Notes under the pieces: generated by a model | Databases searched by the model: none | Told to the model about the DNA's origin: nothing | Seen by the model: only the letters and a program-made list of their open reading frames with translations | Translations under genes and position numbers: made by a program | Assembly (NCBI GenBank): GCA_050303195.1 | Contig: JBNLBG010000006.1 | Coordinates: forward strand, 953 to 64,952 | Length of the DNA stretch: 64,000 bases | Direction: 5' to 3' | Source of the DNA: Allomuricauda sp. | GTDB taxonomy: Bacteria; Bacteroidota; Bacteroidia; Flavobacteriales; Flavobacteriaceae | Shown: positions 1-58,262 of the stretch, one piece after another | Numbering within the stretch: the first letter of the stretch is position 1 | Layout: each line of letters opens with the position of its first letter

Positions 1-480
1 ATGGGACTGACCATTCCATCGTATTCCCAAGTTGTTAAAACTGAAGAGCTTTCAGAAGTAATTGTCTATGCTACCAATTACAAGTATCTCAGCAATGTAA
101 ACTCACAAGAGGTTACATCAATTCCAGTGACTGCACTGGAACGAAAAGTTGCAGCGTATGATATCAAAAACTCCGACATCTACATGGATGAGTATGATTA
201 TTATACAGTGACCTTTTACATCCCTGAGGGAAAAATTTTGGCTGCTTATGATAAAGACGGCAAGATTATTAGAACTGCCGAAAAATTTAAGGACATCAAC
301 CTCCCCGTTACCGTAAAAGAAGCTGTGTTGGAAAGATTCCCTGAATGGACCATTACCAAAGATATTTATTTGGTAACCTACCATGAAGACAAGGGCATCA
401 ACAAAAAGTACAAACTTAAATTGGTCAACGGTGACAAAGTATTACGAGTAAAATTGGATGCTGGAGGTAACTTCCTGTAG
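1..480 (+). CDS. hypothetical exported protein, PepSY-like fold suspected; may continue upstream of the window
   Basis: ORF is open from base 1 to the stop at 478-480. The C-terminal ...KYKLKLVNGDKVLRVKLDAGGNFL resembles PepSY-like modules. No catalytic motif seen. Confidence 0.35.
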   Translation: MGLTIPSYSQVVKTEELSEVIVYATNYKYLSNVNSQEVTSIPVTALERKVAAYDIKNSDIYMDEYDYYTVTFYIPEGKILAAYDKDGKIIRTAEKFKDINLPVTVKEAVLERFPEWTITKDIYLVTYHEDKGINKKYKLKLVNGDKVLRVKLDAGGNFL

Positions 481-515
481 TCTTTACAAAACAATAACCT
501 AAAAGGTTTAAAACA

Positions 516-731
516 ATGTCAGTATTAAAAGTAATTGAAATCCTAGGAAACTCAACGGTGAGTTTTGAGGATGCCGTTCAGAACATTATCACGGAAGCGT
601 CAAAAACCGTGAGAGAAATCAAGTCTGTCTATATCAAGGACATGCAAGTAACTGTGGACAACAATAAAATTTCCCAATATCGTGTAAATGCGAAAGTTTC
701 CTTTGCTATTGCTGATGATATGGACAACTAA
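516..731 (+). CDS. dodecin family flavin-binding protein
   Basis: 71 aa. VIEILGNSTVSFEDAVQNIITEASKTVREIKSVYIKDMQVTV...YRVNAKVSF follows the dodecin pattern in size and beta-alpha-beta-beta layout. Followed by a strong terminator. Confidence 0.7.
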   Translation: MSVLKVIEILGNSTVSFEDAVQNIITEASKTVREIKSVYIKDMQVTVDNNKISQYRVNAKVSFAIADDMDN

Positions 732-738
732 CCATTTT

Positions 739-779
739 GGGCGCATTCTTTTTAGTGTGGAATGCGCCCGGATTTTTTT
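739..779 (+). terminator. Rho-independent terminator after the dodecin gene
   Basis: Perfect 10-bp GC-rich stem gggcgcattc (739-748) / gaatgcgccc (760-769), 11-nt loop, then a T7 run at 773-779. Confidence 0.85.
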
Positions 780-825
780 GCCCTGGGGTTACGTTGAATA
801 GGTCCCAAACCTTAAATCGTACTAT

Positions 826-1458
826 TTAGCTGAAATTCTGGGATTCCTCAAAATATCGTATGGCCTCTTCATCCGTCACTTTATCAAACTCATCATAAAA
901 TTGACCCACTGCCCTAAAATTGTTAGGCACCAAAAGACAAATGACCTCTTCAACATTGGTCGAGTTCTTTAGTTTTTGAATGGCACTTTTGGGAGCAACG
1001 GGAACGGCCACCACTATTTTATGAGGTTGTTGTTTCTTTACCAACTCCACCGATGCCAACAAAGTGTTGCCTGTAGCGATACCATCATCTAGGATGATCA
1101 CTGTTTTGTCTTTAAGGTTTTGAGGTTGTCTACCCTTATGGTATGAATCATGTAGTTCCCTTAACCTTTCCCGGATTCTTTGGGTTTCACGCGCAATATA
1201 GTCCCGTGTTACAGTGACCGCATCGTTTAGTATAATATCTTCAAGGCTTACGGCCCCAATAGCGTATTCTTTCTGAAAGGGATGGCCTATCTTTTTGGTG
1301 AGTACTACATCCAAAGGAGCTTTAAGGGCTTTGGCCACAATGCTCCCTAATGGAAGTCCCCCCCGGGGGATGGCCAATATCACCAAATTTTCTCCTTGAA
1401 AACCCTTCAATACTTCTGAAAGTTGTATGCCCGCATCAATCCTATTTTTAAACATCAT
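826..1458 (-). CDS. phosphoribosyltransferase family protein
   Basis: 210 aa. PRPP-binding motif VIILDDGIATGNT. Last gene of a three-gene minus-strand operon. Confidence 0.8.
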   Translation of the reverse strand: MMFKNRIDAGIQLSEVLKGFQGENLVILAIPRGGLPLGSIVAKALKAPLDVVLTKKIGHPFQKEYAIGAVSLEDIILNDAVTVTRDYIARETQRIRERLRELHDSYHKGRQPQNLKDKTVIILDDGIATGNTLLASVELVKKQQPHKIVVAVPVAPKSAIQKLKNSTNVEEVICLLVPNNFRAVGQFYDEFDKVTDEEAIRYFEESQNFS

Positions 1459-1466
1459 CCAGTTTT

Positions 1467-2114
1467 TTATTCAAGATATTGGGAAAACCATGCTGCTGTT
1501 AGTTCCGCTACTTCTTCAAGCTTGCCAGGTTCTCCAAACAAATGTGTTGCTTTTGGGATTATTTGAAGCTCACATTTGCACTGCAGTTTCTCCATAGCTT
1601 TCCTGTTGAGCTCCAATACCTCTTGGTCCCAACTCCCAACCAACAATAAAGTTGGCGCCAACACTTTATGCAAATAAGGCATGGCCAAATCAGGGCGTCC
1701 ACCACGTGATACCACAGCACCAATCTCTTCACCATAAAAAGCCGCTGCCCGCAATGCGGAAGCACTTCCTGTACTGGCCCCAAAGTAACCGATATGCATT
1801 TCCTTCGTCTCTTTCTGGGATTTTACCCAATGGGTAACATCAATCAAACGAAGTGTGAGAAGGTCAATGTTGAAACGGTTTTCATAAACCCGGTCCTCCT
1901 CTTCCGTTAGTAGATCAAAGAGTAAGGTAGCAAGGCCTTCTCTTTGTAATATCCCGGCCACAAAGTTGTTTCTGGAACTGAACCTACTGCTTCCGCTACC
2001 GTGGGAAAAAATGACAATGCTTGTGGCCCCCTCAGGAATGCAGAGATTACCCTGAAGTGCCAATCCATCCAACCTAATGGTCACTGGAATTTTTTTTGCT
2101 GCCAATGACATCAT
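1467..2114 (-). CDS. dienelactone hydrolase / alpha-beta hydrolase family protein
   Basis: 215 aa. Nucleophile elbow GASTG in YFGASTGSASAL and an HGSG oxyanion region. ATGA start/stop overlap with the upstream gene at 2111-2114. Confidence 0.75.
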   Translation of the reverse strand: MMSLAAKKIPVTIRLDGLALQGNLCIPEGATSIVIFSHGSGSSRFSSRNNFVAGILQREGLATLLFDLLTEEEDRVYENRFNIDLLTLRLIDVTHWVKSQKETKEMHIGYFGASTGSASALRAAAFYGEEIGAVVSRGGRPDLAMPYLHKVLAPTLLLVGSWDQEVLELNRKAMEKLQCKCELQIIPKATHLFGEPGKLEEVAELTAAWFSQYLE

Positions 2115-3295
2115 ACCACAACCGCTTTTGCATTACCTTTTTTCAGTACAAAGAGCAATATAATTCCGCCGTAAGCTACAGCCAATACGATTACGGAAAA
2201 CAAGAGTCCTATAAATGGTACCAGCGTCAATAATCGAAGTATCATTGCAATGGCAAGAGAGAGGAACAAAACACCCCAAAAACCCATTGAGCCCTTGTTT
2301 ACCAAATTCCAATAATGCGAGGCAATGGACGCTGCCACCAAGTGTCCAAAAAAGATGCTGAACAGGTAGAACGACAACAAGAACAAACCTATGGGAATAC
2401 CTATAATGATTACAAAGGTGATACCTATTACCAATGGAAAACCTAAAATATAGATCAGCCCATAACCAAACCCTCTCCAAAAGTCGCCCTCCAAGTTGTC
2501 AGCAGCCCTTTTAAAATATTTTCTGAAGGCCAAGTGCAATAACAACAATACCAAAAATGCGGAAAGCACATAAAAAATCCAGAAGCCCAGTGAAGCAATT
2601 CCAAGGGCTTTCCAAGAAAATTCATTCCGTTCTTTCATAAGGTCTTGGTTAAAATGTGCAGAAGAATTGACCAGTGTATTGCCAAAATCAATTTCACCTG
2701 CTTCCGCCCAGTATTCCACATCTCCAAAGAACTGGGCAGTCTCTCCTATCTTTATTTCATCGGCCACTATCTTGGATTTTCCGTGTATTTGTCCGCTAAT
2801 GCTGATATCTCCTCCGTAGAGTTCCATACCTTGGCCAACCTTTCCATTAAAATCCAAATCACCGCCATAGGCCTTTACCATACCATCTACCTCACCTTCC
2901 ACGGTAATTTTTCCTGAGAAATTCACCAAGTTTCCATGTATCTTGGCATTGTCAGTGACAAACACCTCTCCACCAAAAACAATGACATCATCGGCCACTT
3001 CGTTTGAAATAGTCAATTTTCCAGCCATGGCTCTGACGTCATCTCCAATGGGTCCCATGACCAATACATTACCCCCGGCCACTAACAAATCTTGTTGCAA
3101 GCTATCGCGAACCCTGATTTCACTTCCGGCCACCACGAAATCACCATTGATTTTGGATTCCATGTTAATGATTTCACCTGCTGCGTAAAGGTCGTCCTCC
3201 TGATTTTCAGATATGGTAATGGTTTCATCTGCCTTGAACTGCCCCCATAAAAATAATGGTGCAAAAATTGTCAAAAAGACTAGTTGTGTTCTCAT
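2111..3295 (-). CDS. membrane protein with an N-terminal bactofilin-like (polymer-forming) repeat region and a C-terminal multi-TM domain
   Basis: 394 aa. Signal-like N-terminus. About 200 aa of repeated G-x-V/I-x-G-D/N beta-helix-like units (INGDFVVAGSEIRV, VAGGNVLVMGPIGDDV, FGGEVFVTDNAKIHGNL ...), then 4-5 hydrophobic helices. Confidence 0.6.
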   Translation of the reverse strand: MRTQLVFLTIFAPLFLWGQFKADETITISENQEDDLYAAGEIINMESKINGDFVVAGSEIRVRDSLQQDLLVAGGNVLVMGPIGDDVRAMAGKLTISNEVADDVIVFGGEVFVTDNAKIHGNLVNFSGKITVEGEVDGMVKAYGGDLDFNGKVGQGMELYGGDISISGQIHGKSKIVADEIKIGETAQFFGDVEYWAEAGEIDFGNTLVNSSAHFNQDLMKERNEFSWKALGIASLGFWIFYVLSAFLVLLLLHLAFRKYFKRAADNLEGDFWRGFGYGLIYILGFPLVIGITFVIIIGIPIGLFLLSFYLFSIFFGHLVAASIASHYWNLVNKGSMGFWGVLFLSLAIAMILRLLTLVPFIGLLFSVIVLAVAYGGIILLFVLKKGNAKAVVV

Positions 3296-3347
3296 GAGCT
3301 TTTTTTTAAATGACCTTTAAAGTTCCTGATAATAAGCCACTAACGAA

Positions 3348-3361
3348 ATGACCTGCATCAG
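3348..3361. promoter_or_regulatory. FNR/CRP-type box ATGACCTGCATCAG (TGA-N6-TCA), candidate for the minus-strand operon starting at 3295
   Basis: Centre 3354.5 lies 29.5 nt from the first base of the -7-like octamer GAACTTTA read on the minus strand (3325-3318), 22 nt before the ATG at 3295. This is the weakest -7 match in the set. Confidence 0.4.
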
Positions 3362-3382
3362 TAGAACACTTTAATCATCCAA

Positions 3383-3396
3383 TTGACGATTGTCAT
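3383..3396. promoter_or_regulatory. FNR/CRP-type box TTGACGATTGTCAT upstream of the hemG-like gene
   Basis: TTGA-N6-TCA core. Centre 3389.5 lies 29.5 nt from the -7-like TACATTTA (3419-3426), which is 37 nt before the ATG at 3464. Confidence 0.55.
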
Positions 3397-3463
3397 TTCA
3401 GCAGCAAACAACATCTTTTACATTTACAACGATTCAATGCATTCAATCTAAAATCTTACACCC

Positions 3464-3985
3464 ATGAAAATTTTAATTGTTTATGCCACCGGTGAGGGAC
3501 AGACCCGGAAAATAGCCCGTTTTATGGAAGAGGTCCTTCAAGCTGAGAACCACAGCGTGGTAATTGCCGATGCCACCGAAGAGCCGCCATCACCGGAAAA
3601 TTTTGATGCGGTGCTGGTCGGTAGTTCCATTCATATTCAGAAGTATCACTCCTCCATTAAAGATTATGTCATGCAAAATGTGGATGAACTCAATAAAAAA
3701 CCGTCTGCCTTCTTTTCTGTTTCCATGGCCATAGCATCAGATATTGAGGAAGAACATAAAGAAGTGGAGAAAATAGCGCAGCGCTTTTTGGACCAAACGG
3801 GATGGAAGCCCAAGGAAATCAATCATATCGCCGGAGCGCTCAAGTATACCCAATACGACTATTTTAAAAGGCTTATTATGCGTATGATCGCCAAGAAAGA
3901 AGGGGGCTCCACAGATACTTCAAAAGATCACGAATATACAGATTGGGATGCGGTCCGGTCTTTTGTGCTGGATTTTGCCAAATAA
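3464..3985 (+). CDS. hemG: flavodoxin-domain protein, HemG-like (menaquinone-dependent protoporphyrinogen oxidase type)
   Basis: 173 aa. MKILIVYATGEGQTRKIA flavodoxin N-terminus. IAGALKYTQYDYFKRLIMRMIAKKEGGSTDTSKDHEYTDWDAV parallels the long-loop region of E. coli HemG as I recall it. Confidence 0.6.
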   Translation: MKILIVYATGEGQTRKIARFMEEVLQAENHSVVIADATEEPPSPENFDAVLVGSSIHIQKYHSSIKDYVMQNVDELNKKPSAFFSVSMAIASDIEEEHKEVEKIAQRFLDQTGWKPKEINHIAGALKYTQYDYFKRLIMRMIAKKEGGSTDTSKDHEYTDWDAVRSFVLDFAK

Positions 3986-4056
3986 ACTGGTTTCAATTTT
4001 CTGATTACTTTTAGGGATATTGTTCAATCTTTAAATTGACCTAAATCCACCATTGC

Positions 4057-4710
4057 ATGATAATCCATCGTTTTGATTCTGAAAACTCCATCCTCAATAC
4101 CTTCATGGCAGAAATACGGGATAAAAACATTCAGAAAGATGCCATGAGGTTCCGAAGGAACATTGAACGTATTGGTGAAGTGCTTGCTTATGAATTGAGC
4201 AAAACACTGGATTATAAAGCTGTTATGATCGAAACCCCATTTGGAACAAAGAAAAGCTCGCAAACTATAGATTCCTTGGTACTTTGCTCTGTACTCCGTG
4301 CTGGGTTGCCTTTACACCATGGTATTTTAAATTATTTTGATGGAGCAGAGAATGCATTTATTTCTGCCTACAGGCACCATCCTGATGGTGGAGACGACTT
4401 TGAGGTTATTGTAAAATATTTTGCAGCGCCTTCACTGGAGGGCAAAACCTTGGTTTTAACCGACCCTATGTTGGCAACGGGAAAGACTTTGGAAAATGTA
4501 TTGAAAGCTCTTAGTGGCCACGGCACACCAAAGAAAATCCATATCATTTCAGTAATTGGGTCCAAAGCGGGGGTAGCTCATGTACAAGAAGTTTTTCCAG
4601 GAGAGACCCAACTTTGGATAGCATCGATTGATGAAGAGCTCACCAGCAAGGGCTATATTATTCCAGGTCTTGGTGATGCGGGAGACCTATCCTACGGTGA
4701 AAAATTATAA
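4057..4710 (+). CDS. upp: uracil phosphoribosyltransferase
   Basis: 217 aa. LVLTDPMLATGKT PRPP motif and the C-terminal IIPGLGDAGDLSYG Upp signature. Confidence 0.9.
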   Translation: MIIHRFDSENSILNTFMAEIRDKNIQKDAMRFRRNIERIGEVLAYELSKTLDYKAVMIETPFGTKKSSQTIDSLVLCSVLRAGLPLHHGILNYFDGAENAFISAYRHHPDGGDDFEVIVKYFAAPSLEGKTLVLTDPMLATGKTLENVLKALSGHGTPKKIHIISVIGSKAGVAHVQEVFPGETQLWIASIDEELTSKGYIIPGLGDAGDLSYGEKL

Positions 4711-6075
4711 CAGGATTTCTACCACTTCATGAAGCACAGGAATATGGCAACGCCAACCATACGTTTCATGTATCTTGTCTTTGAAGGCATGTAAGGCATC
4801 ATTTTCCCCGTGGATCAAATAAACTTTTTCTGGAATGTTTTTAATAGAACCCATCCAATGCAGCAGTTCGCTTTGGTCTGCATGCGCGGATAGACTTTCC
4901 AAGTGTTCCACTTTTGCCTTCACGGGAATGAATTTTCCAAACATTTTCAATTCTTGGGCGCCTTCCAACAGTTTCCGCCCCCGGGTTTCTTCCGCTTGAT
5001 ACCCCACAAGCAAAACGGTAGTGGATTTTACATCCATTAATTGTTTTAAATAGGTTAACACCCTACCCCCTGTAACCATACCGCTCCCTGCGATCACAAT
5101 TTTGGGTCGTGGGTCATCAATGGTTTCCCAAGTTTCCCGATACGAACTTACTAAGTTTACATGGTTGCACATGTTGTGATATTCACTCATGGAAAGCTTG
5201 TGCCATTCTGGAAAGCTTCCAAATACCTCCAAAACATTGGTGCCCATGGGACTATCCACAAAAATGGGAATGTTGGGAATCTTGTTTTTGTCATACAGTT
5301 TCCAGAGCAAATACATTAAGGATTGTAAACGTTCCACCGCAAAAGAGGGAATAATCAAGGTGCTACGATTCTGCAGCGTTCGTTCAGCCAAATTTTTAAA
5401 AATGGCCTCCAAATCTTCTACAGGATGGTCTTTATCCCCGTATGTGCTCTCCACAAAAAGATAATCTGCCCATTCCGGTCGCAGAGGTGCATCCAACAAG
5501 TCATCTTTCAATCGGCCCACATCTCCAGAAAAGACAAGTACTTTCCCATGAATATTCAGTTCAATAAAAGTAGACCCGATAATGTGCCCATTGCGCTTAA
5601 AACATGCATTGTAATTTGGAGCTAGTTCAATGTTCTCCCCTTCTTCAATACTCTTAAAATACTTCAGGGTTCGTTTTACATCTTCTTGATCATAGAGTGG
5701 CAAAGCTGGGTCATGACTACTGTATCCCTCTTTGTTGGCCCTTTCGGCCTCTTCCTCATGTATTTTGGCACTGTCCTGCAATATAATTTCAGCAATGGCC
5801 AAGGTAGGGGCCGTTCCAAGAATATCCCCCACAAAACCCTGTTTTACCAAAAGAGGGAGGTACCCACAATGGTCCAAGTGTCCATGGGTCAACAACACTA
5901 GGTCTAGTTTGGAGACATCGATGGGAAGAGGCAGCCAATTTTGTTGTCGAAGCTCCTTACTTCCTTGGAACACACCACAATCCACCAATATATTGACATC
6001 TTCAGTCTGCAGATAAAATTTAGAACCGGTCACGGTGCCAGATCCTCCCAAAAAATGGACTTTTAGCTTTTTCAT
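4705..6075 (-). CDS. MBL-fold metallo-hydrolase, beta-CASP family (RNA/DNA-metabolising nuclease type)
   Basis: 456 aa. HGHLDHCG (HxHxDH) motif, a beta-CASP insert and the C-terminal SAHADQSELLHW motif. Its 3' end overlaps the convergent upp by 6 nt. Confidence 0.85.
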   Translation of the reverse strand: MKKLKVHFLGGSGTVTGSKFYLQTEDVNILVDCGVFQGSKELRQQNWLPLPIDVSKLDLVLLTHGHLDHCGYLPLLVKQGFVGDILGTAPTLAIAEIILQDSAKIHEEEAERANKEGYSSHDPALPLYDQEDVKRTLKYFKSIEEGENIELAPNYNACFKRNGHIIGSTFIELNIHGKVLVFSGDVGRLKDDLLDAPLRPEWADYLFVESTYGDKDHPVEDLEAIFKNLAERTLQNRSTLIIPSFAVERLQSLMYLLWKLYDKNKIPNIPIFVDSPMGTNVLEVFGSFPEWHKLSMSEYHNMCNHVNLVSSYRETWETIDDPRPKIVIAGSGMVTGGRVLTYLKQLMDVKSTTVLLVGYQAEETRGRKLLEGAQELKMFGKFIPVKAKVEHLESLSAHADQSELLHWMGSIKNIPEKVYLIHGENDALHAFKDKIHETYGWRCHIPVLHEVVEILL

Positions 6076-6084
6076 AGAGCGCGT

Positions 6085-6927
6085 TTAACCACTGCACAGT
6101 GATTTCATTTCTTTAATGATTCTTTCCTTTCTTCCATTGGAAACGCCCAAATGATCCAAATAGAATACTTCTTCCCGCAATTGCCGACAGAGTACCACAT
6201 TTCTATCCAAAAGAAATTGCTTTTCCCTGTTGGTGAGCAGGGTGGAAACGGTTATTGGATAGAGCCCCAAACAATCAATCCGGTCCTTCAGTCCATCGCC
6301 CATAGGATAATCCCAACTCAAGAGATACAATCCCACACATTTTCCGTATTGCAAGGCGTCTGCCGTAAAGCGTGTATTTGTTACCACCCAACCCAATGTA
6401 TCTTCGAAATCCTTATTCTTTTGGGCTTGAAGAAATCCTTTTACATCATTATATCGGGAGTTGATGTACAAGGGCACCTTTACATTGCAATTAAGGCCTC
6501 CCTCCCCATGGAACTTGCATTCGATGATGTTAAGGGTTCCATTTTTTATGGCCAGTACGTCGATTTCATGGGAAACACAATCACCCTGAAGCTCTTCACC
6601 AACCTTGGTCCGGTATCCGGAATAATGCAAAATTCCTGCAAGAAAACGTTCAAATGGAAATCCTGTGGGGCCCAACTCGTAAATGGCCTTTTTTAGTTTG
6701 TATTTTGAAGCATAGACCGATTTGGCCTTTTTTAATAAAGCAAATGCCCGATTGTAGATTTCCCCGGTTGTAATCTCTGGGTAAAGCTCGTCCATGACCT
6801 GATCCACAATTTTATTGACCACAGAATGAGTGGCTCCACTGGATTTTAGGGAGTTTCGTAACTTGTCAACAGAAAATTTGGTCTTTTCTCCCGTAGATTT
6901 TATAATATCGAATTCCTTCTCTTTCAT
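6085..6927 (-). CDS. ATP-cone domain fused to a PD-(D/E)xK (Mrr-like restriction endonuclease fold) domain
   Basis: 280 aa. The N-terminal about 90 aa (IIKSTGEKTKFSVDKLRNSLKSSG...IYNRAFALLKK) is ATP-cone-like. The core HEIDVLAIKNGTLNIIECKF supplies D...ExK. Ends 9 nt upstream of the beta-CASP gene. Confidence 0.7.
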   Translation of the reverse strand: MKEKEFDIIKSTGEKTKFSVDKLRNSLKSSGATHSVVNKIVDQVMDELYPEITTGEIYNRAFALLKKAKSVYASKYKLKKAIYELGPTGFPFERFLAGILHYSGYRTKVGEELQGDCVSHEIDVLAIKNGTLNIIECKFHGEGGLNCNVKVPLYINSRYNDVKGFLQAQKNKDFEDTLGWVVTNTRFTADALQYGKCVGLYLLSWDYPMGDGLKDRIDCLGLYPITVSTLLTNREKQFLLDRNVVLCRQLREEVFYLDHLGVSNGRKERIIKEMKSLCSG

Positions 6928-6986
6928 CTCTCTAAAATAGTATCAATTACAGTATGGCTCAAATTAAGGAAGTGATTTACAATTGG

Positions 6987-7967
6987 CTAATCCTTATTCT
7001 CCTTACTTGCCGCTTTTTCTTGTTTTCTAAAATACCTCCGGGTCAAAAAATTATGTTTTAGGGCTTCCATATTTTCATTAAAACGTGCCGTTCCTTCCTC
7101 TATGTTTTGCATGGTTCGTTCCAATTGGTTTACCAGAACAGTATCTGTCGCCAAGTAGTTTATGGTTCCTTTTCCTTTGGAAATCGTTGTGGAAAGACTA
7201 TCGAGCGTATGGGAAATTGACACCATTTTTTTGCTCGAAGCTTCCAAGTTTTCCAAAACACTTTTCATCTGCTGACCAGAAATAGAGTCGTTTAGCAGTA
7301 CATCGGCCACACTGTTTTCAAAATTAATGTCCGTTATGATGCCATTGAGCTTTTCAAGTGTGACATTTGCTTCCATGCTCATCTTTTTAAGATTGACAGA
7401 AGTTTGCAAAAGGTTATTAGACATTACCGTATCATTGAGCAATCTTCCCAAGGTGCCCTTGTTGTGTTTTAATTTCTCGGTTATTTCCAACAGGTCGGCT
7501 GTTAAAAGTGCAGCATTCTCATTAGTGACGTTCAAGGTGCTCAACATATCTTCCGCTCCTATCTTGCTGTAGGAAACAATTTGGTCTCCTGATGCAATGG
7601 GTGCGCCTGCTCCTTGCCCAGGTACAATGTTTACGATCATACTACCTACCAAACCATCTGAGCCGATACTGGCTATGGCATTCTTTCGGATATGTTGCAG
7701 CATTTTCTCTTGAATGACCATGGTAACCACAATGGTGGTGTCGTTGAACATTTCAATGGTGTTTACTGTACCAATATCAATACCGGAATACCGAACATTA
7801 TTGCCTTTCTGGAGACCATTCACATTTTTAAAAACCGCATTTATGGTAAAGGTGTTTCCAAACAGATTTTGTCTATTTCCTATAAAATAGGCCGCAAGAA
7901 CCAGCAAAATAGTCCCCAGTGTAACAAAAACCCCTAGTTTTATTTTTTCTGTTGTTGTTTTATCCAT
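6987..7967 (-). CDS. MlaD/MCE family protein (substrate-binding component of the Mla-like ABC system)
   Basis: I chose the ATG at 7967 (MDKTTTEKIKLGVFV... with a TM anchor), 4 nt after the upstream stop. The longer track ORF reaching 8054 would overlap the ATPase by 83 nt. MCE-domain-like GNNVRYSGIDIGTV. Confidence 0.8.
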   Translation of the reverse strand: MDKTTTEKIKLGVFVTLGTILLVLAAYFIGNRQNLFGNTFTINAVFKNVNGLQKGNNVRYSGIDIGTVNTIEMFNDTTIVVTMVIQEKMLQHIRKNAIASIGSDGLVGSMIVNIVPGQGAGAPIASGDQIVSYSKIGAEDMLSTLNVTNENAALLTADLLEITEKLKHNKGTLGRLLNDTVMSNNLLQTSVNLKKMSMEANVTLEKLNGIITDINFENSVADVLLNDSISGQQMKSVLENLEASSKKMVSISHTLDSLSTTISKGKGTINYLATDTVLVNQLERTMQNIEEGTARFNENMEALKHNFLTRRYFRKQEKAASKENKD

Positions 7968-7971
7968 CTCT

Positions 7972-8757
7972 TTATTTTTTAAAGAATGCCTGTACTTTTG
8001 GGTCATTGGAATTGGTAAGATCCTGAAAAGAGCCCTCAGCATAATTGATACCATCCACTAGAAGTATCATACGTTCCGAAATTACCCGGGCACAGTCCAC
8101 ATCGTGTGTAATGATCAATGAAGAGGTTCCATATTCCTTTTGGATGTTGCGCATCAGTTCTATGATTTCCTTTGAGGTGATAGGATCCAGCCCGCTTGTG
8201 GGTTCATCATACAAAATGATTTTTGGTCGCAATATGATGGCCCGTGCCAAGGCCACCCTTCTTTTCATACCGCCTGAAAGCTCTTCTGGCATCAAATCCA
8301 TGGTATGCTCCAAGCCAACACTTTTTAGCGCTTCCAAAACAAAAGGAGTGGTGTCGGTAACCACACCTATTTTCTTTTGGTGCCTTCTCATGGGGAATTC
8401 CAAGTTTTCCCTTACGGTCATGGAATCGTAAAGGGCACTTCCTTGGAACAAAAAACCAATATCCGCTCGTAGAATATCAAGTGCTTCTTGGTGGAGTTCA
8501 CTGATATCCTGTCCCATAACAATGATTTTACCAGCATCCGGTTGTTCCAAACCTACCAGACATTTTATCATGACAGATTTACCCGAACCTGATTTGCCCA
8601 TGACTACCAAATTTTCTCCTTCATACAGCCTCATGTTGAAGCCATTGAGCACGTGGTTATCCCCGAAACTTTTATGCAATCCCTCTATATGGATCATCTC
8701 CTTAAGGGTCTGTCCCGACGTGGATTTCATTGGTATTTCCTTTTCGCTTGACATCAT
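7972..8757 (-). CDS. ABC transporter ATP-binding protein (MlaF-like)
   Basis: Walker A GKSGSGKS, signature LSGGMKRRVALAR, Walker B ILYDEP. ATGA overlap with the permease gene. Confidence 0.9.
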   Translation of the reverse strand: MMSSEKEIPMKSTSGQTLKEMIHIEGLHKSFGDNHVLNGFNMRLYEGENLVVMGKSGSGKSVMIKCLVGLEQPDAGKIIVMGQDISELHQEALDILRADIGFLFQGSALYDSMTVRENLEFPMRRHQKKIGVVTDTTPFVLEALKSVGLEHTMDLMPEELSGGMKRRVALARAIILRPKIILYDEPTSGLDPITSKEIIELMRNIQKEYGTSSLIITHDVDCARVISERMILLVDGINYAEGSFQDLTNSNDPKVQAFFKK

Positions 8758-9533
8758 AGTTCATAAAAAATATCCGATATAAACACAGCTACAAAATCAA
8801 TCACAAACAATAGCATTGAGGTAAATACCACTGCGGTATTTGCGGCCATACCCACCCCAGCAGTCCCTTTTTTGCTGTAATACCCTTTGTAACATCCCAC
8901 AAGACCAATGGCAAAACCAAAAAAGAACGATTTTATGGTAGCGGGAATCAAATCACCATAGGTAAGGGCATTGAATACGGTATTAAAATACAGTTGAAAG
9001 GAAACATTACCCTTAAAATTCTCTACAAGTGCCGAGCCATACAGTGCTACGGCATCGCCCAAAATAACAAGAAGGGGCAACATTAGTGTGGTGGCCATAA
9101 TGCGTGTAACGACCAAAAATTTAAAGGGATTGGTCCCTGAGACCTCCATGGCATCAATCTGTTCCGTTACCCGCATTGACCCCAGTTCTGCTCCAATGCC
9201 CGATGCAATACGCCCAGCACAGACCAAGGCGGTTATCACGGGTCCAAGTTCCCGTACGATGGAAATGCCCACCATATTTGGCATCCAAGAAACGGCTCCA
9301 AACTCTATAAGTGTGGGTCGGGATTGTAAGGTGAGCACTAAACCAATAATAAATCCCGTGACCAAGACCAAGACCAAGGAGCGGTTTCCCATATTATAGC
9401 ACTGCCGCAAAAATTCCTTGAACTCAAAAGGTGGTCTAAAGCCTACTTTAAAAAAACGGCCAGCAAAATAAGATAGCTCCCCAATCTCAATGAAGAATTT
9501 TCGTATTTGTGAAATAGCCTGTGACACACGCAT
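8754..9533 (-). CDS. MlaE family ABC transporter permease
   Basis: 259 aa, multi-TM. RELGPVITALVCAGRIASGIGAELGSMRVTEQIDA is typical of MlaE/Ttg2B permeases. Confidence 0.85.
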   Translation of the reverse strand: MRVSQAISQIRKFFIEIGELSYFAGRFFKVGFRPPFEFKEFLRQCYNMGNRSLVLVLVTGFIIGLVLTLQSRPTLIEFGAVSWMPNMVGISIVRELGPVITALVCAGRIASGIGAELGSMRVTEQIDAMEVSGTNPFKFLVVTRIMATTLMLPLLVILGDAVALYGSALVENFKGNVSFQLYFNTVFNALTYGDLIPATIKSFFFGFAIGLVGCYKGYYSKKGTAGVGMAANTAVVFTSMLLFVIDFVAVFISDIFYEL

Positions 9534-9591
9534 GATTTTACCATTTGAAGGTAGCTATTTTCAAAAATATAACTTGAGATAGGTTATGGGA

Positions 9592-9605
9592 ATGATCGAA
9601 ATCAT
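9592..9605. promoter_or_regulatory. FNR-type box ATGATCGAAATCAT serving the minus-strand mlaE operon
   Basis: TGAT-N4-ATCA. Centre 9598.5 lies 29.5 nt from a perfect -7 element TATTTTTG read on the minus strand (9569-9562), 28 nt before the ATG at 9533. Confidence 0.6.
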
Positions 9606-9609
9606 ACTA

Positions 9610-9623
9610 CTGATCAATATCAT
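9610..9623. promoter_or_regulatory. FNR-type box CTGATCAATATCAT serving the plus-strand 128-aa ORF
   Basis: TGAT-N4-ATCA. Centre 9616.5 lies 29.5 nt from TAACTTTA (9646-9653), 23 nt before the ATG at 9677. Confidence 0.6.
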
Positions 9624-9676
9624 TTTGACAAAAAAGGGTAAAAACTAACTTTAAGAATCCTATAAAAACAAGTAAA

Positions 9677-10063
9677 ATGGAAACAAAAGCTATGTATAAC
9701 TCAGATTTGCACTTTGAACACCAGCAATGGGAAAAGGAGCTTGAATTTTGGGAAGATGAGCTTAGATCTTTTCAAAATAGGCTTGATGAGTTGGTAAACC
9801 GTTGGACAGATGAAAAGGTGTTGGCGGAATTAAGTGAGTTCCAAAACCAGTTTTTCATTCACAAATCCAAGATTGAGGAATTCAAGGAAAAGATCCACGA
9901 GCATGAACTCAATATCTCCAAACATTTGGAAGCCCAAGAGAACGTCATTAATCGATTGCATTTTGAGCACCATAAAAAAATTAGGGAGGGTATTGAAACA
10001 GAAAGAGGCATTTACCATGATTTGAAGAAGAAATTCTTCCGCTTCCTTTCCAAATACATGTAA
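9677..10063 (+). CDS. hypothetical all-helical, His/Glu-rich protein (two HFEH motifs); a metal-binding helical bundle is possible
   Basis: 128 aa. LHFEHQQWEKELEFW near the N-terminus and RLHFEHHKKIREGIE near the C-terminus, plus IHEHE. No family recognised with certainty. Confidence 0.5.
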   Translation: METKAMYNSDLHFEHQQWEKELEFWEDELRSFQNRLDELVNRWTDEKVLAELSEFQNQFFIHKSKIEEFKEKIHEHELNISKHLEAQENVINRLHFEHHKKIREGIETERGIYHDLKKKFFRFLSKYM

Positions 10064-10076
10064 CAGGAGAAAGAAT

Positions 10077-10391
10077 TTTTCTGTAAAACATACTATTGAC
10101 TGTATTTCCCTTAAGCCTGGAGAACAAGTTCAGTTCAATAAAGTTTCCAAAAAAATGGTCAAGAACCAATTTGATATAGATGGGGAAGTTGCCCCGAAAA
10201 ATGGAACCCTAATTTTTAATGAGGTGGGCTTTGAGAAATTCATTCATAAGTTGGAGCACTGGTATAGGGTAAGCTTTCACATTGTAGGAACTCCTCCCAT
10301 AGACACGCTTAATGGAATGAAATACAATTACGATTATGAAGGTAAAAACATAACAATAAGCTTTTTACCAAAGAAAAACGGCCAGCAATAA
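10077..10391 (+). pseudogene. C-terminal fragment of a FecR-family anti-sigma factor (DUF4974-like), N-terminal part missing
   Basis: The frame is open upstream of the track ORF (10155..10391). ...FSVKHTIDCISLKPGEQVQFNKVSKKMVKNQFDIDGEVAPKNGTLIFNEVGFEKFIHKLEHWYRVSFHIVG fits the FecR C-terminal pattern (L-x-pGe..., W-x-G-x-L-x-F-n, leR/HWY-x-V). No sigma-binding or TM part lies upstream. Confidence 0.55.
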
Positions 10392-10770
10392 AATTGCCAA
10401 CCGCTATAGTTAAATCAAAACCAAATTTCTGAATATAGATGTGACGGTCAATATTCAGATTTAGTATTAATCAAAATCACTTCAAAATTATAAAAAAATC
10501 AGTACGGCACCAACCCAACATGTGTAGGGGGTTCTTTTTACCCCTCGGCATATGTGTCAGTAGTACAAATGGCCTCAGAACAATACAAAAAAAGTAAAAA
10601 CATAGCGTCATTCCTTAACCAGACCATAACCATGAAAGAAGATACCAGTCCATTGAATACCAAAGGCCAAAAGATGTTTATAGAAAAGCAGCTTGAAACT
10701 ATTTTAGTTTTGTAGAAAATCTGTCCTAAAGATCGGGGTATCTTCAATGCTATTGTCCAATTTTCCTAGA

Positions 10771-11292
10771 CTATGGCATCAAACTATAAGTGAAACTAAT
10801 ATTTGTCTCTATTGTATTTCCACCGACATCTGTAATATTGAAATCATTGGAAAACACAAAACTGGTTTCACTGTCATTAAAGGTTATGGTTAAATTTTGA
10901 AGAATGCACGCATCAACAAAACTCAATGTATTTGAGGAGAGTTGCCAGGTGCCATCAAAAGTACCCTGATTTTGGCAATTTGTCCCGTTCTGTCCTTGTT
11001 TAAAAGTGTATGTTCTATCTGCATTGAACGTATAAATCGCATCTTTTTGACATTCTCCATATTGCGCAAAAAGATCGGTACTGGGGTTTTCTTGGTTATC
11101 ATCGGTTATATCCACAGCTTCATCGGCAACGATAGCGCTTAGCACCCATTCTCCAACCAATTTCTCTTCATTGGCTCCCAATGCCCCGGTAAAATCTTCA
11201 GGGCAACTAGAAGAACCATCATCTGTACTGCACGAAACAATAAATCCACTCATCATAAACAATGTACCAATACTAAAAATTATTCGCTTCAT
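10771..11292 (-). CDS. lipocalin-like lipoprotein of unknown function
   Basis: I chose the ATG at 11292 (MKRIIFSIGTLFMMSGFIVSCS lipobox); the track start at 11304 is a TTG codon. LVGEWVLSAI... and GTWQLSSNTLSF are lipocalin-like beta-barrel strands. Confidence 0.6.
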   Translation of the reverse strand: MKRIIFSIGTLFMMSGFIVSCSTDDGSSSCPEDFTGALGANEEKLVGEWVLSAIVADEAVDITDDNQENPSTDLFAQYGECQKDAIYTFNADRTYTFKQGQNGTNCQNQGTFDGTWQLSSNTLSFVDACILQNLTITFNDSETSFVFSNDFNITDVGGNTIETNISFTYSLMP

Positions 11293-11544
11293 AGTAAAAA
11301 TCAAAATTTAAGGTTTCTAATTTGATGAAATATTATCGAGATGGTTGCATCGATCATGTATAAAAATTTTTGTTGATTCATCAGGTAAAGTTTAATTATC
11401 TTACTATGAGACTAGCATCAGCTAATTCCAGTAAGATTTTTTACCATCCCACAAAAGCAATTCCCTGATCAAAGAAAGTTGATGTTTCTTTCAAGAAAGA
11501 CATATTTCAACCAATCCAAAAAAAGATGGCTCATGAATTAAAAT

Positions 11545-11871
11545 TTCATTTCCATGGGAAAACTCGGGTATGTGATGCTCTTTTTTCACCACCGGGTATC
11601 AATCCTACCACAAATTCCATATGTGGGCTGTTCGCTTTTTCCTCTTTTCCATCTTCTCTCTATAGTTCAAAGGTCCCATCGGCTCCTGTCCAAATTTTTA
11701 TAGTCGTGGGAGCATCAATTTCTTCATCTGTATACTGACGTATGGGATCCATGGGTATGATGGCTCCAGCACTGATGTAAATGGGCATTGTGGCCAAGTC
11801 AACTTCCCTTTGCATGGTTTTTCCGCCTTCTTCCAATTTTTGGGAGCAATTTATATCATAGAATTGGGTAT
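11545..11871 (-). pseudogene. relic of the C-terminal part of a GH31 glycoside hydrolase (alpha-xylosidase/alpha-glucosidase type)
   Basis: The minus-strand frame reads DTQFYDINCSQKLEEGGKTMQREVDLATMPIYISAGAIIPMDPIRQYTDEEIDAPTTIKIWTGADGTFEL, then an in-frame TAG (11661-11659), then REDGKEEK... This matches the GH31 C-terminal pattern WYDfwtG..ieGG..v..ap.d.iPlfvraGaIiP...qy..e....l.l.iy.G.dG.F.LYEDDG. No intact ORF exists, and more degraded sequence probably continues to about 11990. Confidence 0.6.
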
Positions 11872-12007
11872 CGGAACTATCTTATCCTTATAAGGTTTTA
11901 CGATTTGTACCAATTTCAAGAGCTGAAAAACCACAATTAGTGATCATCACCGGAGAAGGCAAGTGAGATTCTAAAAGTTTGTTCAGCAAAGAAGTACTTT
12001 TCTATAT

Positions 12008-41336: not shown

Positions 41337-42026
41337 CTACACCAGCTTGTATTTGTTCGCTTTTTTGGAGAGATCGATAAGATTTTTCACTTTCATTTTC
41401 TTCATTAGATTGAAGCGATGGGTCTCAATGGTGCGTTTGCTGTTCTGTAATTTTTCAGAAATCTCCTTATTGGTATAGCCCGCCAACACCAGTTCCAGCA
41501 CTTGAAGTTCTTTGTTGGTCAGATCAAAGGGATTGTTTTTGTCTTCTTTAGAAGAAGACTTACCATTGATGCTTTTTTCTGGATTGAACAAGTTGTTCAC
41601 CAGAACATTGGATATATCCCCACTAAAATATTTTCCACCTTCCTGTACCATGTGTATGGCCTTGACAAATTCAGTCTTGCCCGTATCTTTTAACAGATAA
41701 CCGCTGGCCCCAGCCTGTACAGATTTTAGAATGTATTCTTCTGAATCGTGCATGGAAAGGATGATGCACTTGGTCTTTCTGTTGCCCACAGAGTTTAAAC
41801 GCTCCACGGTTTCAATACCGCCCAATTCGGGCATACGGATATCAATAATTAAGATATCAGGGGATTTATCATCCACCATCTTCAGGGCCTCCAAACCGTT
41901 GGAAACCTCGCCGATGACATCCAAGTCCGGTTCTTCTTCAAGTAATGCACGTATGCCATCCCGAACCAAAGAATGGTCATCGGCCAATACAATGCTAATG
42001 GTGTGTTGAAGTCCAGATTCTTGCAT
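41337..42026 (-). CDS. NarL/LuxR-family response regulator
   Basis: 229 aa. Receiver (LADDHSLVRDGI..., DILIIDIRMPELGG) and a C-terminal LuxR HTH (LTNKELQVLELVLAGYTNKEISEKLQNSKRTIETHRFNLMKKM). Confidence 0.9.
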   Translation of the reverse strand: MQESGLQHTISIVLADDHSLVRDGIRALLEEEPDLDVIGEVSNGLEALKMVDDKSPDILIIDIRMPELGGIETVERLNSVGNRKTKCIILSMHDSEEYILKSVQAGASGYLLKDTGKTEFVKAIHMVQEGGKYFSGDISNVLVNNLFNPEKSINGKSSSKEDKNNPFDLTNKELQVLELVLAGYTNKEISEKLQNSKRTIETHRFNLMKKMKVKNLIDLSKKANKYKLV

Positions 42027-46283: not shown

Positions 46284-47669
46284 TTAAAGTGAGGAATCGT
46301 CCTTGTTCCCAATTTCAAAGCTGTTGATATAGCCTATGGGATCTTTGGCATCGTATGCGTTTCCATCGATGAAATCTGTAGTTGCAGGTTTGTAACCATC
46401 CGTTTCTGGAATATCCGCTGCGGGAATATGCCCTTCGGCTACCAAAAGCTTGGCCGCTTTTTTCCAGATATCAGGACGGTAGATGTCTTTAATAGTTTCT
46501 TCATACCAAGATGCTGGTTTTGGCTCAGGAATTTGGCCCCACCTTCTCATCTGGGTCAAGAACCAAATACCATCAGAATAAAATGGATAGGTAGCATTGT
46601 ACTTATAGAATACATTAAAGTCGGGCATGGACCGTTTATCTCCCTTTTCAAATTCAAAGGTTCCAGTCATTGAGTTGGCCAAAACAACTTCATCGGCTCC
46701 CACATATTGGGGCATGGATAGAATTTTAACAGCTTCTGCTCTATTGCCTGGCTCATCCAACCATTTTCCGGCACGAATCAACGCTTTGGTCACAGCAACA
46801 GCAGTGTTTGGATTTTCCTCAACAAACTTTTTGGTCATTACAAAGACCTTTTCAGGATTGTTTTTCCAAATGTCATAATTGGTGGTCACGGGAACTCCTA
46901 TTCCTTTAAATACGGCTTGTTGGTTCCAGGGCTCACCTACACAGTACCCATAAATGGTCCCAGCTTCTAAAGTAGCTGGCATCTGTGGAGGTGGCGTAAC
47001 CGATAACAAAACTTCGGCATCAATTTGTCCCTGCACATTATCGGCGGTGTACATTCCGGGATGGATTCCGGCCGCTGCTAACCAATATCTAATTTCGTAG
47101 TTGTGGGTAGATACCGGGAACACCATTCCCATTTTAAAAGGTTTTCCGCTGTTCTTATACGAGGAGATTACTGGTTTTAGGGCATCTGCCTTTATGGGGT
47201 GAACGGGTTTGCCATCTGCATCTTTGGGAACATTGGTTTTCATTTTGGACCATACATCGTTGGATACTGTTATGCCATTGCCATTCAGGTCCATTGAAAA
47301 TGGTGTGACCAGCTGGGCTTGTCGGCCAAATCCGGCTCCAGCTGCAATGGGTTGTCCGGCCAACATGTGCGAGCCATCCAATTGCCCGTCAATAACACGG
47401 TCGAGTACATTTTTCCAGTTGGATTGTGCCTCAACCGAAACAAAAAGACCTTCATCCTCGAAGAAGCCTTTTTCCTTGGCGATGGCCAAGGGAGCCATAT
47501 CGGTAAGTTTGATAAAGCCGAAGGTCAATTGAGGTTTTTCAATTTCCAGTGAAGTTTTAGGTACGTTTGCTTGGGCAGTTTCTGCTGTTTTTTTCTCAGT
47601 TTTCCCTCCGCACGCCATAAGGACTGCTGAGAGTAACCATGCGATTGATTTTAAAGTGATGTTTTTCAT
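46284..47669 (-). CDS. nrtA: CmpA/NrtA family nitrate ABC transporter substrate-binding lipoprotein
   Basis: 461 aa. Lipobox [32 protein letters not shown] and [13 protein letters not shown] are NrtA/CmpA signatures. Confidence 0.85.
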
Positions 47670-47683
47670 AATATTAAGCTTTC

Positions 47684-47697
47684 TACGTATTAGTACT
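47684..47697. promoter_or_regulatory. TACGTA core with flanking arm (TACGTAtTAGTACT) just upstream of nrtA
   Basis: Core at 47684-47689, 14 nt from the nrtA ATG (47669). The arm TAGTACT parallels TAATACT in the narK and nirB sites. Confidence 0.45.
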
Positions 47698-47881
47698 TAT
47701 TTATAGCAAATGTATACTGAGTAATGGAACTATTTTATGGGAAAGCCCATGGCTGCATATCTTTTTAATACATGAACTGTTATGTTACAAACCATGGAAA
47801 AACCTGTCAAAAAACATATTATTCTTTTAACTGACTGATTTATATTTAGATATGTATGGTTGAGGTTTACTGAGTCTGAGG

Positions 47882-47892
47882 TACGTAGTACT
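47882..47892. promoter_or_regulatory. TACGTA core (TACGTAGTACT) in the distal part of the nrtA upstream region
   Basis: Core at 47882-47887. The same TACGTAGTAC decamer occurs upstream of nasA (41255-41264). Flanked by TACTGAG repeats. Confidence 0.4.
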
Positions 47893-48073
47893 GAGAAGCT
47901 CTTCCAGTGCCACACTTATCCATTACAGGCACTAAAATTTGAGCTCATTAAGAATAATGGGGCGAATAAAAATCATTGCCTTAACCGTCCAGAAAGGTTC
48001 GGAATATTCTAATTGATAATGTAGTTGTTGGGAAAAAGTTATTGCCGAAAAGAGGTGACTTTGATATACTATA

Positions 48074-48838
48074 CTATCCGGCCAAATAGAAATTGTGCTC
48101 CAAGATTTCCCTTTTCAAGTAGTCTACATCAACAATGCCTATTCGCTTGCCTTTTGTATTGATAAGGTTTTCTCTTTTAAGTGCGGAAAACGTCCTGATG
48201 ACCTGTTCTTCGGTTGTTCCGGCATAATCGGCATAATCCCTTCGACTCAGGGGTACATCAAGAAAGCCATTGGATTGCCCAAATTTTCGGTTGATGTACA
48301 ATAAAGTATCAATGACCCGCTCCCTAACGGTCATTTGGGAGAGTGACTTTACCTTTGCTTCGCTTTTGTTGAGTTCGTTGGCATAAAAAAGCATTAGATC
48401 ATAGGCAAATGACGCGTCGCTCTTCAGCACTTCTTGGAGCAGGTCCTTTGAAAAGTAGCAAAGGGTTGAATCTTCAAGGGCGATTGCCCCAATGGGGTAG
48501 AATTCTTCGGTGCCAAAACCACGATGGCCAATGATTTCCCCTGCTTTGGCAAAGCGAACAATTTGTTCCCTTCCGTTGATACCAGTTCTAAAAACTTTCA
48601 CCTTGCCTTTTAGGATAAAGAACAATCCGTTTACCGGGGCCCCTTCAATAATGAACTGTTGCCCTTTTTTACACCGGATATCATTTTTACGTTCCATAAA
48701 CTTCGCAACAACGGGGGAGCCAATGTTTTTTTTCAACAAACAATATTCATTATTGCAACGGCTGCACGAGGTGTCTGACATGGATGGTTTTCCATGTCTC
48801 TCCTTGATTTTGGGTCCGTATGCCTCGTAAAATTGCAT
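48074..48838 (-). CDS. Crp/Fnr family transcriptional regulator with an FNR-type cysteine pattern
   Basis: N-terminal C-x2-C-x4-C (CSRCNNEYC) plus a Cys in ALEDSTLCYF, the position equivalent to E. coli FNR Cys122 (ALETSMVCEI). cNMP-like beta-roll. The C-terminal HTH contains EEQVIR. Alternative start at 48781. Confidence 0.75.
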   Translation of the reverse strand: MQFYEAYGPKIKERHGKPSMSDTSCSRCNNEYCLLKKNIGSPVVAKFMERKNDIRCKKGQQFIIEGAPVNGLFFILKGKVKVFRTGINGREQIVRFAKAGEIIGHRGFGTEEFYPIGAIALEDSTLCYFSKDLLQEVLKSDASFAYDLMLFYANELNKSEAKVKSLSQMTVRERVIDTLLYINRKFGQSNGFLDVPLSRRDYADYAGTTEEQVIRTFSALKRENLINTKGKRIGIVDVDYLKREILEHNFYLAG

Positions 48839-50267: not shown

Positions 50268-50296
50268 GATACTTAGCTTTGTTTGAAACAAAAATA

Positions 50297-50321
50297 AGTA
50301 TTAATACGTATTTTTACGTAC
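50297..50321. promoter_or_regulatory. AGTATTA arm plus tandem TACGTA cores upstream of narK
   Basis: AGTATTAaTACGTAtttttACGTAC. Cores at 50305-50310 and 50315-50320, 10 bp apart. The proximal core lies 8 nt from a perfect -7 element TATTTTTG read on the minus strand (50296-50289), 21 nt before the ATG at 50267. Confidence 0.55.
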
Positions 50322-50454
50322 TTTCTAAAGCCAAACTATAGATTGACGCCGATTTTTATGAAGTTCATAATCTAAGGGAAGAAAATAATGGAAATGAAAA
50401 AAATATTCCTTTTTTTATTCGGAATTGAGAAATTAAAATAGGTTGATTGTCTAT

Positions 50455-51219: not shown

Positions 51220-51271
51220 ATCGCGGTATTTTGATTTTCAATAAAAATTTTTATGAATCTGACAACAAAAA

Positions 51272-51277
51272 TACGTA
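51272..51277. promoter_or_regulatory. TACGTA core overlapping a minus-strand -7 element for cobA
   Basis: The minus strand reads TACGTATTTTTG. TATTTTTG (51273-51266) is a perfect TAnnTTTG, 46 nt before the cobA ATG (51219). Confidence 0.45.
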
Positions 51278-51294
51278 ATTATTTTTAAATAATC

Positions 51295-57627: not shown

Positions 57628-57673
57628 GATAGTTTTATCACAACAAAGATTAAAAGACATTTTTATCCTTTTT

Positions 57674-57687: not shown

Positions 57688-57743
57688 GTTATAGGTTTGG
57701 GCCGCTACATACTTTTGGGGCATAATTTTTAACCAATTATGTC

Positions 57744-58256: not shown

Positions 58257-58262
58257 ATCCGT

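Follow-up and report, generated by a model that had tools for sequence, protein, structure and literature searches.

Two FNR-type boxes in the divergent hemG spacer of Allomuricauda sp. as predicted class II promoters of a putative low-oxygen regulon

Boxes and -7 elements in the hemG spacer

In the genome of Allomuricauda sp. (contig JBNLBG010000006.1, positions 953 to 64,952) a spacer of 168 bp separates hemG, with its ATG at 3464, from a divergent operon of three genes whose first start codon is the minus-strand ATG at 3295; all positions are those of the 64,000-nucleotide stretch analysed here, which we call the window. This spacer holds two palindromic boxes, ATGACCTGCATCAG and TTGACGATTGTCAT, with centres 35 bp apart, and each box is followed, on the strand of the gene that it faces, by a -7 element of the Bacteroidetes type or by a weaker version of one (Table 1). 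As argued below, the two boxes probably belong to two class II-type promoters, dependent on a CRP/FNR-family activator and forming part of a low-oxygen regulon.

By its sequence the rightward gene encodes a bona fide HemG, scoring 147.4 bits against the NCBIfam equivalog NF008316 (cut-off 142, residues 1-172) and 3.5e-38 against Pfam Flavodoxin_5 (PF12724), with a long-chain flavodoxin-like fold. The uracil phosphoribosyltransferase gene upp, which lies downstream, is probably co-transcribed with hemG, and the hemG-upp synteny recurs in loci L002, L003 and L093 of the genomes and metagenomes used for comparison. The leftward operon begins with a gene for a 394-residue membrane protein, whose DUF8173 domain was taken from precomputed Pfam matches, and continues with genes for a dienelactone-hydrolase-like (DLH) protein and a type I phosphoribosyltransferase (PRTase).

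Both spacer boxes are perfect matches to TGAY-N4-RTCA and contain the TGA-N6-TCA core, which is the core of FNR/DNR-type boxes and not the TGTGA of CRP sites. From the centre of ATGACCTGCATCAG to the start of the leftward -7-like element GAACTTTA there are 29.5 nt, the same distance as on the hemG side, and the coordinates, sequences and both distances in a preliminary description of this spacer proved correct to the base. Compared with the -7 consensus TAnnTTTG, TACATTTA matches at 7 of 8 positions and GAACTTTA at the 6 of 8 that the preliminary description had given for this weaker element. The leftward element breaks TAnnTTT at one position, a G in place of the first T, and for that reason alone misses the strict composite motif described below, while keeping TTTR, the part of the -7 element that is conserved in orthologous promoters. 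No conserved -33 TTTG, expected ~19-21 nt upstream of the -7 element, was found by column counts in the anchored alignment; in its place lies the 3' half of the box (TCAT). From the -7 element, transcription of hemG would be predicted to start near 3431-3434. Competing explanations of the spacer as an RNA family, a stable fold or a sigma-70-type promoter found no support: there was no Rfam match at E <= 0.1 (region 1-12000), no stable RNA fold of the spacer (z-score -0.15) and no excess in a sigma-70-type promoter scan.

Counted over the whole window, the palindrome alone carries no signal: bare TGA-N6-TCA occurs 26 times against 23.05 +/- 4.4 expected, and the enrichment of TTGAY-N4-RTCAA with up to two mismatches is not significant. 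The signal appears only when the search is restricted to intergenic DNA or to boxes phased with a -7 element. Under either restriction the boxes are non-random. Intergenic DNA makes up 9.6% of the window and contains eight of the 26 TGA-N6-TCA matches (P = 0.002), and five of the seven matches to the stricter TGAY-N4-RTCA (P = 1.4e-4). The composite of TGA-N6-TCA, 23 nt and TAnnTTT is found four times against 0.11 expected, a number reached in none of 100 shuffles, and independent block shuffles gave an expectation of 0.06. All four composite matches are intergenic and oriented toward the adjacent gene, these being hemG, mlaE, a gene for a 128-residue protein and the cytochrome c/fasciclin/nosZ operon.

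Conservation of boxes and phasing in relatives

The boxes are conserved, and kept in fixed phase with the -7 element, on both sides of the spacer. In Allomuricauda sp. CP2A (L001) and Muricauda sp. MAR_2010_75 (L002) both boxes are retained, with changes only in the spacer or from R to R (in the leftward box of CP2A the half-sites are retained and the spacer is altered), and the leftward -7-like element is unchanged in both strains. The rightward box is conserved in these two loci and also in L003 and L006. In L003, from Muricauda sp. CAU 1633, hemG follows a co-directional PNP gene and has an unrelated sequence upstream, and TTGACGAATGTCAT is still found at unchanged distance from TACATTTA. 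A. ruestringensis has a box of another sequence upstream of hemG, ATGATTCAAATCAT, again 23 nt from a -7 element, TAAGTTTA.

The preliminary description had proposed looking for the box in front of orthologues in other genomes, and the outcome was clear for both genes flanking the spacer. A metagenome scan with the HemG alignment yielded 80 loci, which were reduced to 65 non-redundant ones by collapsing upstream regions of >80% identity. In 31 of these 65 regions there is a perfect TGAY-N4-RTCA no more than 130 nt from the start codon; shuffles had 0.6 on average and 4 at most, and the background in the remainder of the same loci is 0.026 boxes per 130 nt. The constant phasing claimed for the window is also seen here, with TnnnTTT[AG] lying 23 nt downstream in 23 of 35 hemG boxes, 22 nt in two and at another spacing once. 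Nearly all boxed loci are of low G+C content and have Bacteroidetes-type -7 elements. Over 40 sites the base 5' to the TGA is most often A (19) or C (15) and seldom T (4) or G (2), and the outer T/A positions are not conserved. In some lineages (L022, L026/L027/L030/L081, L064 and L071) the hemG promoter has two boxes whose centres are 22 or 44 bp apart; this tandem of a distal and a proximal box suggests a class I plus class II or a cooperative architecture.

On the leftward side we compared orthologues of the 394-residue protein from Poritiphilus flavus, Maribacter aestuarii, Aquimarina sp. and Winogradskyella sp. (loci L086-L089; 41-59% identity). In all four genes a perfect box precedes the start codon by 68-70 nt, which from the background rate has a probability of ~4e-7, and all four have -7-like elements (GTACTTTG, TTTATTTG, TACATTGA and TAATTTTA) at the 23-nt spacing, where the weaker element of the window also lies. 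Poritiphilus has a second box at a distance of 36 bp, which is phased on the opposite strand to TAACTTTG and would serve a divergent unit of an 80-residue protein gene followed by upp, so that the paired design of the window spacer is repeated there. Judged from these comparisons, both boxes are real, conserved cis-elements.

The genes of the leftward operon are kept together to a varying extent. The order 394-residue protein, DLH, PRTase is maintained in Aquimarina sp. (L088), where it is extended by an acylphosphatase gene, and in L086 the PRTase gene adjoins that of the 394-residue protein. The counterpart in Allomuricauda sp. CP2A, the sole locus with this protein returned by the contig scan, is 91% identical.

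Table 1 Features of the hemG spacer and of related loci in the window
Feature	Position	Strand	Remarks
Leftward FNR-type box ATGACCTGCATCAG	3348-3361		Centre 3354.5; predicted to serve the promoter of the 394-residue protein/DLH/PRTase operon
Rightward FNR-type box TTGACGATTGTCAT	3383-3396		Centre 3389.5; predicted to serve the hemG promoter
hemG -7 element TACATTTA	3419-3426	+	Bacteroidetes-type; first base 29.5 nt from box centre
Leftward -7-like element GAACTTTA	3318-3325	-	Weaker; plus strand reads TAAAGTTC; 22 nt before ATG 3295
hemG	3464-3985	+	Menaquinone-dependent protoporphyrinogen IX dehydrogenase, 173 aa; NCBIfam NF008316, Pfam
upp	4057-4710	+	Uracil phosphoribosyltransferase; downstream of hemG
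394-residue protein	2111-3295	-	First gene of leftward operon; signal peptide, bactofilin-like beta-helix, C-terminal multi-pass membrane domain DUF8173
DLH-like alpha/beta hydrolase	1467-2114	-	Second gene of leftward operon; 215 aa
Type I PRTase	826-1458	-	Third gene of leftward operon; 210 aa
Boxes of the unit of a 169-residue protein and dodecin			136 and 189 nt left of window start
Adjacent boxes ATGATCGAAATCAT and CTGATCAATATCAT	9592-9605 and 9610-9623		Spacer between mlaE operon and 128-residue protein gene
-7 element TATTTTTG	9569-9562	-	Phased; mlaE operon
-7 element TAACTTTA	9646-9653	+	Phased; 128-residue protein gene
Box ATGATTTATATCAT	57674-57687		Upstream of cytochrome c/fasciclin/clade II nosZ operon; phased to TACTTTTG
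-7 element TACTTTTG	57710-57717	+	nosZ operon
Crp/Fnr-family protein	48074-48838	-	254 aa; sole Crp/Fnr protein of the window; candidate regulator

Other boxed units and a candidate regulator

Every transcription unit of the first ~10.4 kb of the window is preceded by a box, in keeping with the idea, already put forward in the preliminary description, that this region is a low-oxygen response island. The idea gains further from the relatives, where phased boxes precede genes for Usp, class II (B12-type) ribonucleotide reductase (RNR), PNP-DeoC with a TerB-like gene, CMD and DUF2267, as well as WG_beta_rep with SDR, an FMN-binding protein, and a Pyridox_ox_2 (PNPOx-like) gene followed by one for a PPDK-like (PEP-utilising) enzyme. 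This gene set fits the content expected of a low-oxygen regulon, namely oxygen-independent isoenzymes, stress proteins, nucleotide salvage and anaerobic respiration. In CP2A (L001 7222-8937) class II RNR directly follows the gene of the 394-residue protein and replaces DLH and PRTase, and in MAR_2010_75 (L002 1-896) RNR has a phased box of its own. From these different placements it appears that the cargo of the island is shuffled between close strains and that the boxes stay at every promoter.

Between 9533 and 4705 the mlaE, mlaF, mlaD, ATP-cone and beta-CASP genes form a single minus-strand string. The last two genes (4705-6927, same strand), encoding a beta-CASP metallo-beta-lactamase RNase-like protein of 456 residues and an ATP-cone protein of 280 residues, are conserved as a pair in L001, L002 and L003, and probably belong to the box-driven mlaEFD operon. 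Facing this operon, the 128-residue protein with a phased box (9677-10063) is His-rich and all-helical by eye, contains HFEH twice and has no Pfam or NCBIfam match; from its sequence it could be a metal- or oxygen-binding helical bundle.

The remaining composite match lies in the clade II (Sec-dependent) nosZ cluster (57196-63914), which encodes cytochrome c, fasciclin, NosZ, a 232-residue protein with no family match, NosL, a PNPOx-like protein and NosD. The divergent gene of an Rrf2-family regulator has its start codon ~20 nt from the centre of the box, which may also affect the Rrf2 promoter. Nitrous-oxide reductase genes are classic targets of FNR/DNR and DNR/NnrR regulators.

The only Crp/Fnr-family protein of the window has the two domains of this family, cNMP_binding (PF00027, 2.5e-19) and HTH_Crp_2 (PF13545, 5e-15), and matches the PDB entries 2gau and, for FNR, 5cvr/5e44. 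Across 16 orthologues from many genera of Flavobacteriaceae its N-terminus is variable apart from an invariant C25-x2-C28-x-N-x2-C33, and C56 and C127 are likewise invariant. In a provisional alignment with E. coli FNR, C25 and C28 align with C20 and C23, C33 falls one residue off C29, and E211 and R215 align with E209 and R213; in the structure of A. fischeri FNR the residue aligned with C127 is C122, a ligand of the cluster. At the sequence level, then, the four [4Fe-4S] ligand positions (E. coli C20, C23, C29 and C122) are matched by C25, C28, C33 and C127. In the recognition helix E211 and R215 are conserved, and the counterpart of Ser212 is I214. In FNR, Ser212 reads the outer T of TTGAT, so that its replacement by Ile would fit boxes in which this outer T is not conserved. 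Scores against the FixK and FnrL models are far below their cut-offs. Taken together, the sequence places the protein outside the proteobacterial FNR orthologue group, as a regulator FNR-like in design. We tentatively regard it as the best available candidate for the protein that binds the boxes, with somewhat less than even confidence.

The gene of this candidate sits in a nitrate-assimilation cluster (nirBD, cobA, narK, crp/fnr, nrtABCD) whose order is conserved in Cellulophaga (L090) and in L091. Upstream of the operon that contains the regulator gene itself, the window has no box. In L091 the narK-crp/fnr operon has a perfect consensus FNR box, TTGATCATCATCAA (6508-6521), that overlaps its -7 element TAGTTTTG, a position that by analogy suggests autorepression, as at E. 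coli fnr; neither the window nor L090 has a narK box of this kind. The promoters of the cluster carry other motifs. Paired TACGTA motifs, such as ATTACGTA...ATTACGTATTTTTG and AAGTACGTAAAAATACGTA, are present at 47669-48073, 50291-50454 and 51219-51323, where some overlap the -7 element, and are conserved in Cellulophaga and L091. The protein that binds them is probably the NarL-type response regulator encoded at 41337-42026, paired with a PilJ/PAS histidine kinase (54898-56733). A segment of ~40 nt (..ATGTTTTTTGACAGGTTTTTCCATGG..), on the minus strand within 47669-48073 and upstream of the gene for the nitrate ABC-transporter binding protein, is also shared with both loci and could be a leader or regulatory element.

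A class II-type activation model, its rivals and its meaning

We propose that the spacer consists of two back-to-back activator-dependent promoters, independent of each other and each with a box of its own. The promoter unit would be a 14-bp palindrome, a/c-TGAY-N4-RTCA-t, centred 29.5 nt upstream of a -7 element TAnnTTTR that is often degraded to TnnnTTTR, with the box in the position usually taken by the -33 element. A dimer of a CRP/FNR-family regulator would bind each box and recruit RNA polymerase, one dimer driving hemG(-upp) rightward and the other driving the genes of the 394-residue protein, the DLH-like hydrolase and the PRTase leftward. The same element would drive the mlaEFD-ATP-cone-beta-CASP operon, the gene of the 128-residue protein, the unit of the 169-residue protein and dodecin, and the nosZ operon. 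Low oxygen would be the signal, and the Cys-rich FNR-like protein of the window the best candidate for the regulator. We infer from sequence patterns that an activator is at work, that oxygen is the signal, which protein is the regulator and where transcription starts.

Several features of the sequences point this way. At class II promoters of E. coli, where the FNR site has its centre at -41.5 and the -10 hexamer its first base at -12, these two points are 29.5 nt apart; because the distance from box to -7 element is the same here, the geometry would be that of class II. Dependence on an activator is suggested by the replacement of the -33 TTTG by the 3' half of the box and by the frequent degradation of the -7 elements. 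Low oxygen is suggested as the signal by the content of the regulon, with the oxygen-independent HemG and nitrous oxide respiration in the window, and class II RNR, Usp and nucleotide salvage in the relatives.

Some observations weigh against this model. The -41.5 position holds only if the -7 element starts at -12, as the E. coli -10 hexamer does, and the leftward GAACTTTA is weak. Regarding conservation, a perfect box is missing from 34 of the 65 metagenomic hemG upstream regions, and no box was found upstream of hemG in Flagellimonas hymeniacidonis, so that membership of the regulon is not universal. The candidate regulator scores only 73.3 bits against the NCBIfam FNR model NF008365, for which the cut-off is 228. 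Moreover, the promoters of the nitrate cluster in which its gene lies have TACGTA repeats instead of FNR-type boxes, with the one exception of the narK promoter in L091, and the candidate may be a dedicated nitrogen regulator, with the true box-binding protein encoded elsewhere in the genome. Finally, nosZ as a target would suit a nitric oxide-sensing paralogue of the DNR/NnrR type equally well.

These last points lead to the rival that we take most seriously, even if we consider it unlikely: the boxes would again be class II sites of the CRP/FNR family, but the signal would be nitric oxide or other N-oxides, sensed by a DNR/NnrR-like paralogue, or else a metabolic effector, and the regulator would be a protein other than the candidate of the window. 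Besides the box at nosZ, the classic DNR/NnrR target, with an Rrf2 (NsrR-like) gene divergent to its operon, this rival can point to the synteny of the candidate's gene with a nitrate-assimilation cluster that is free of boxes in the window, and to the many Crp/Fnr paralogues that Flavobacteriaceae usually encode. Most boxed genes, however, have no link to N-oxides (hemG, class II RNR, Usp, nucleotide salvage, dodecin, Mla), the set as a whole resembles hypoxia regulons, and the window's only Crp/Fnr protein has the conserved FNR-like set of cysteines.

That the palindromes are instead operators at which a repressor, of the CRP/FNR or another family, occludes the -33 region is in our estimate very improbable. 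It would agree with the overlap of the box with the would-be -33 element and with the repressor-like position of TTGATCATCATCAA in L091; but the box keeps its distance from the -7 element to within 1 bp in promoters that are highly divergent, where a repressor would need overlap and not a fixed helical phase, and degraded -7 elements without a -33 TTTG are hallmarks of activator dependence. Practically no weight is left for chance palindromes in AT-rich intergenic DNA. The unremarkable number of TGA-N6-TCA matches in the whole window is what chance would give, but the composite motif, the hemG boxes and the four boxed orthologues of the 394-residue protein all depart far from expectation, and these comparative counts refute it.

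The model of class II-type activation at a -7 promoter has its closest parallel in the class II FNR promoters of E. coli and other Proteobacteria (TTGAT-N4-ATCAA at -41.5), which share the 14-bp palindrome, the TGA-N6-TCA core and the replacement of the upstream promoter element by the box. As with proteobacterial FNR, the targets include anaerobic respiration and oxygen-independent haem synthesis, and the candidate has C-x2-C-x4-C, a central Cys and the E..R residues. Unlike in E. coli, the downstream element here is the Bacteroidetes -7 TAnnTTTG in place of TATAAT, conservation does not extend to the outer T of TTGAT, and the N-terminal Cys spacing of the candidate is one residue shorter. 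The FNR-type box upstream of a nitrous-oxide reductase operon recalls the control of proteobacterial nos operons by DNR, NnrR or FixK, with the difference that nosZ is here of clade II, in a genome of Flavobacteriaceae, and that the regulon is dominated by genes outside denitrification.

In gene content the set also resembles the DosR regulon of M. tuberculosis, in which the block Rv0569-Rv0574c has the putative PRTase Rv0571c beside the B12-dependent RNR Rv0570, together with Usp proteins and RtcB (PMC5309233). The preliminary description had linked the PRTase and DLH pairing to Rv0571c; the PRTase half of this link agrees with the published block, and according to that description the protein would also have a dienelactone-hydrolase half. 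The shared content comprises the PRTase, the class II RNR after the gene of the 394-residue protein in CP2A, Usp, and RtcB with Archease near the island in Poritiphilus. DosR is a NarL-type response regulator with another DNA motif, whereas a CRP/FNR-family protein is proposed here, and the analogy is functional only. HcpR2 of Bacteroides and Porphyromonas is, like the regulator proposed here, a Bacteroidetes protein from the CRP/FNR family with a palindromic site, and its regulon contains essentially only hcp (PMC1274295). It was rejected as the cognate system, since its motif, GTAAC-N4-GTTAC, differs from the boxes described here. In the full-text literature, of which our coverage was incomplete so that this is absence of evidence only, we found no description of an FNR regulon, nor of FNR control of hemG or nosZ, in Flavobacteriaceae or Bacteroidetes. 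What we propose is therefore a well-understood mechanism in a phylum and a promoter architecture for which no published description was found.

On a wider scale, we give slightly under an even chance to a widely conserved hypoxia regulon of Bacteroidota, with hemG at its core and an FNR-like [4Fe-4S] regulator acting by class II activation of the phylum-specific sigma-A (-7) polymerase, which would have converged on the gene content of DosR (PRTase, class II RNR, Usp, PNPOx, RtcB) and would also switch clade II nosZ in response to oxygen in marine Flavobacteriaceae. If the model holds, a defined cis-element would be available for gene control at low oxygen in Flavobacteriaceae and the wider Bacteroidota, together with a candidate regulator, and class II activation geometry would carry over to the unusual sigma-A/-7 promoter of Bacteroidetes. 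A hypoxia context would also be gained for several uncharacterised families, namely the DUF8173 bactofilin-like membrane protein, DLH with PRTase, DUF2267, dodecin, and beta-CASP with ATP-cone. Finally, the regulation of clade II nosZ in abundant marine and soil Bacteroidota would become directly testable, which bears on nitrous oxide sinks.

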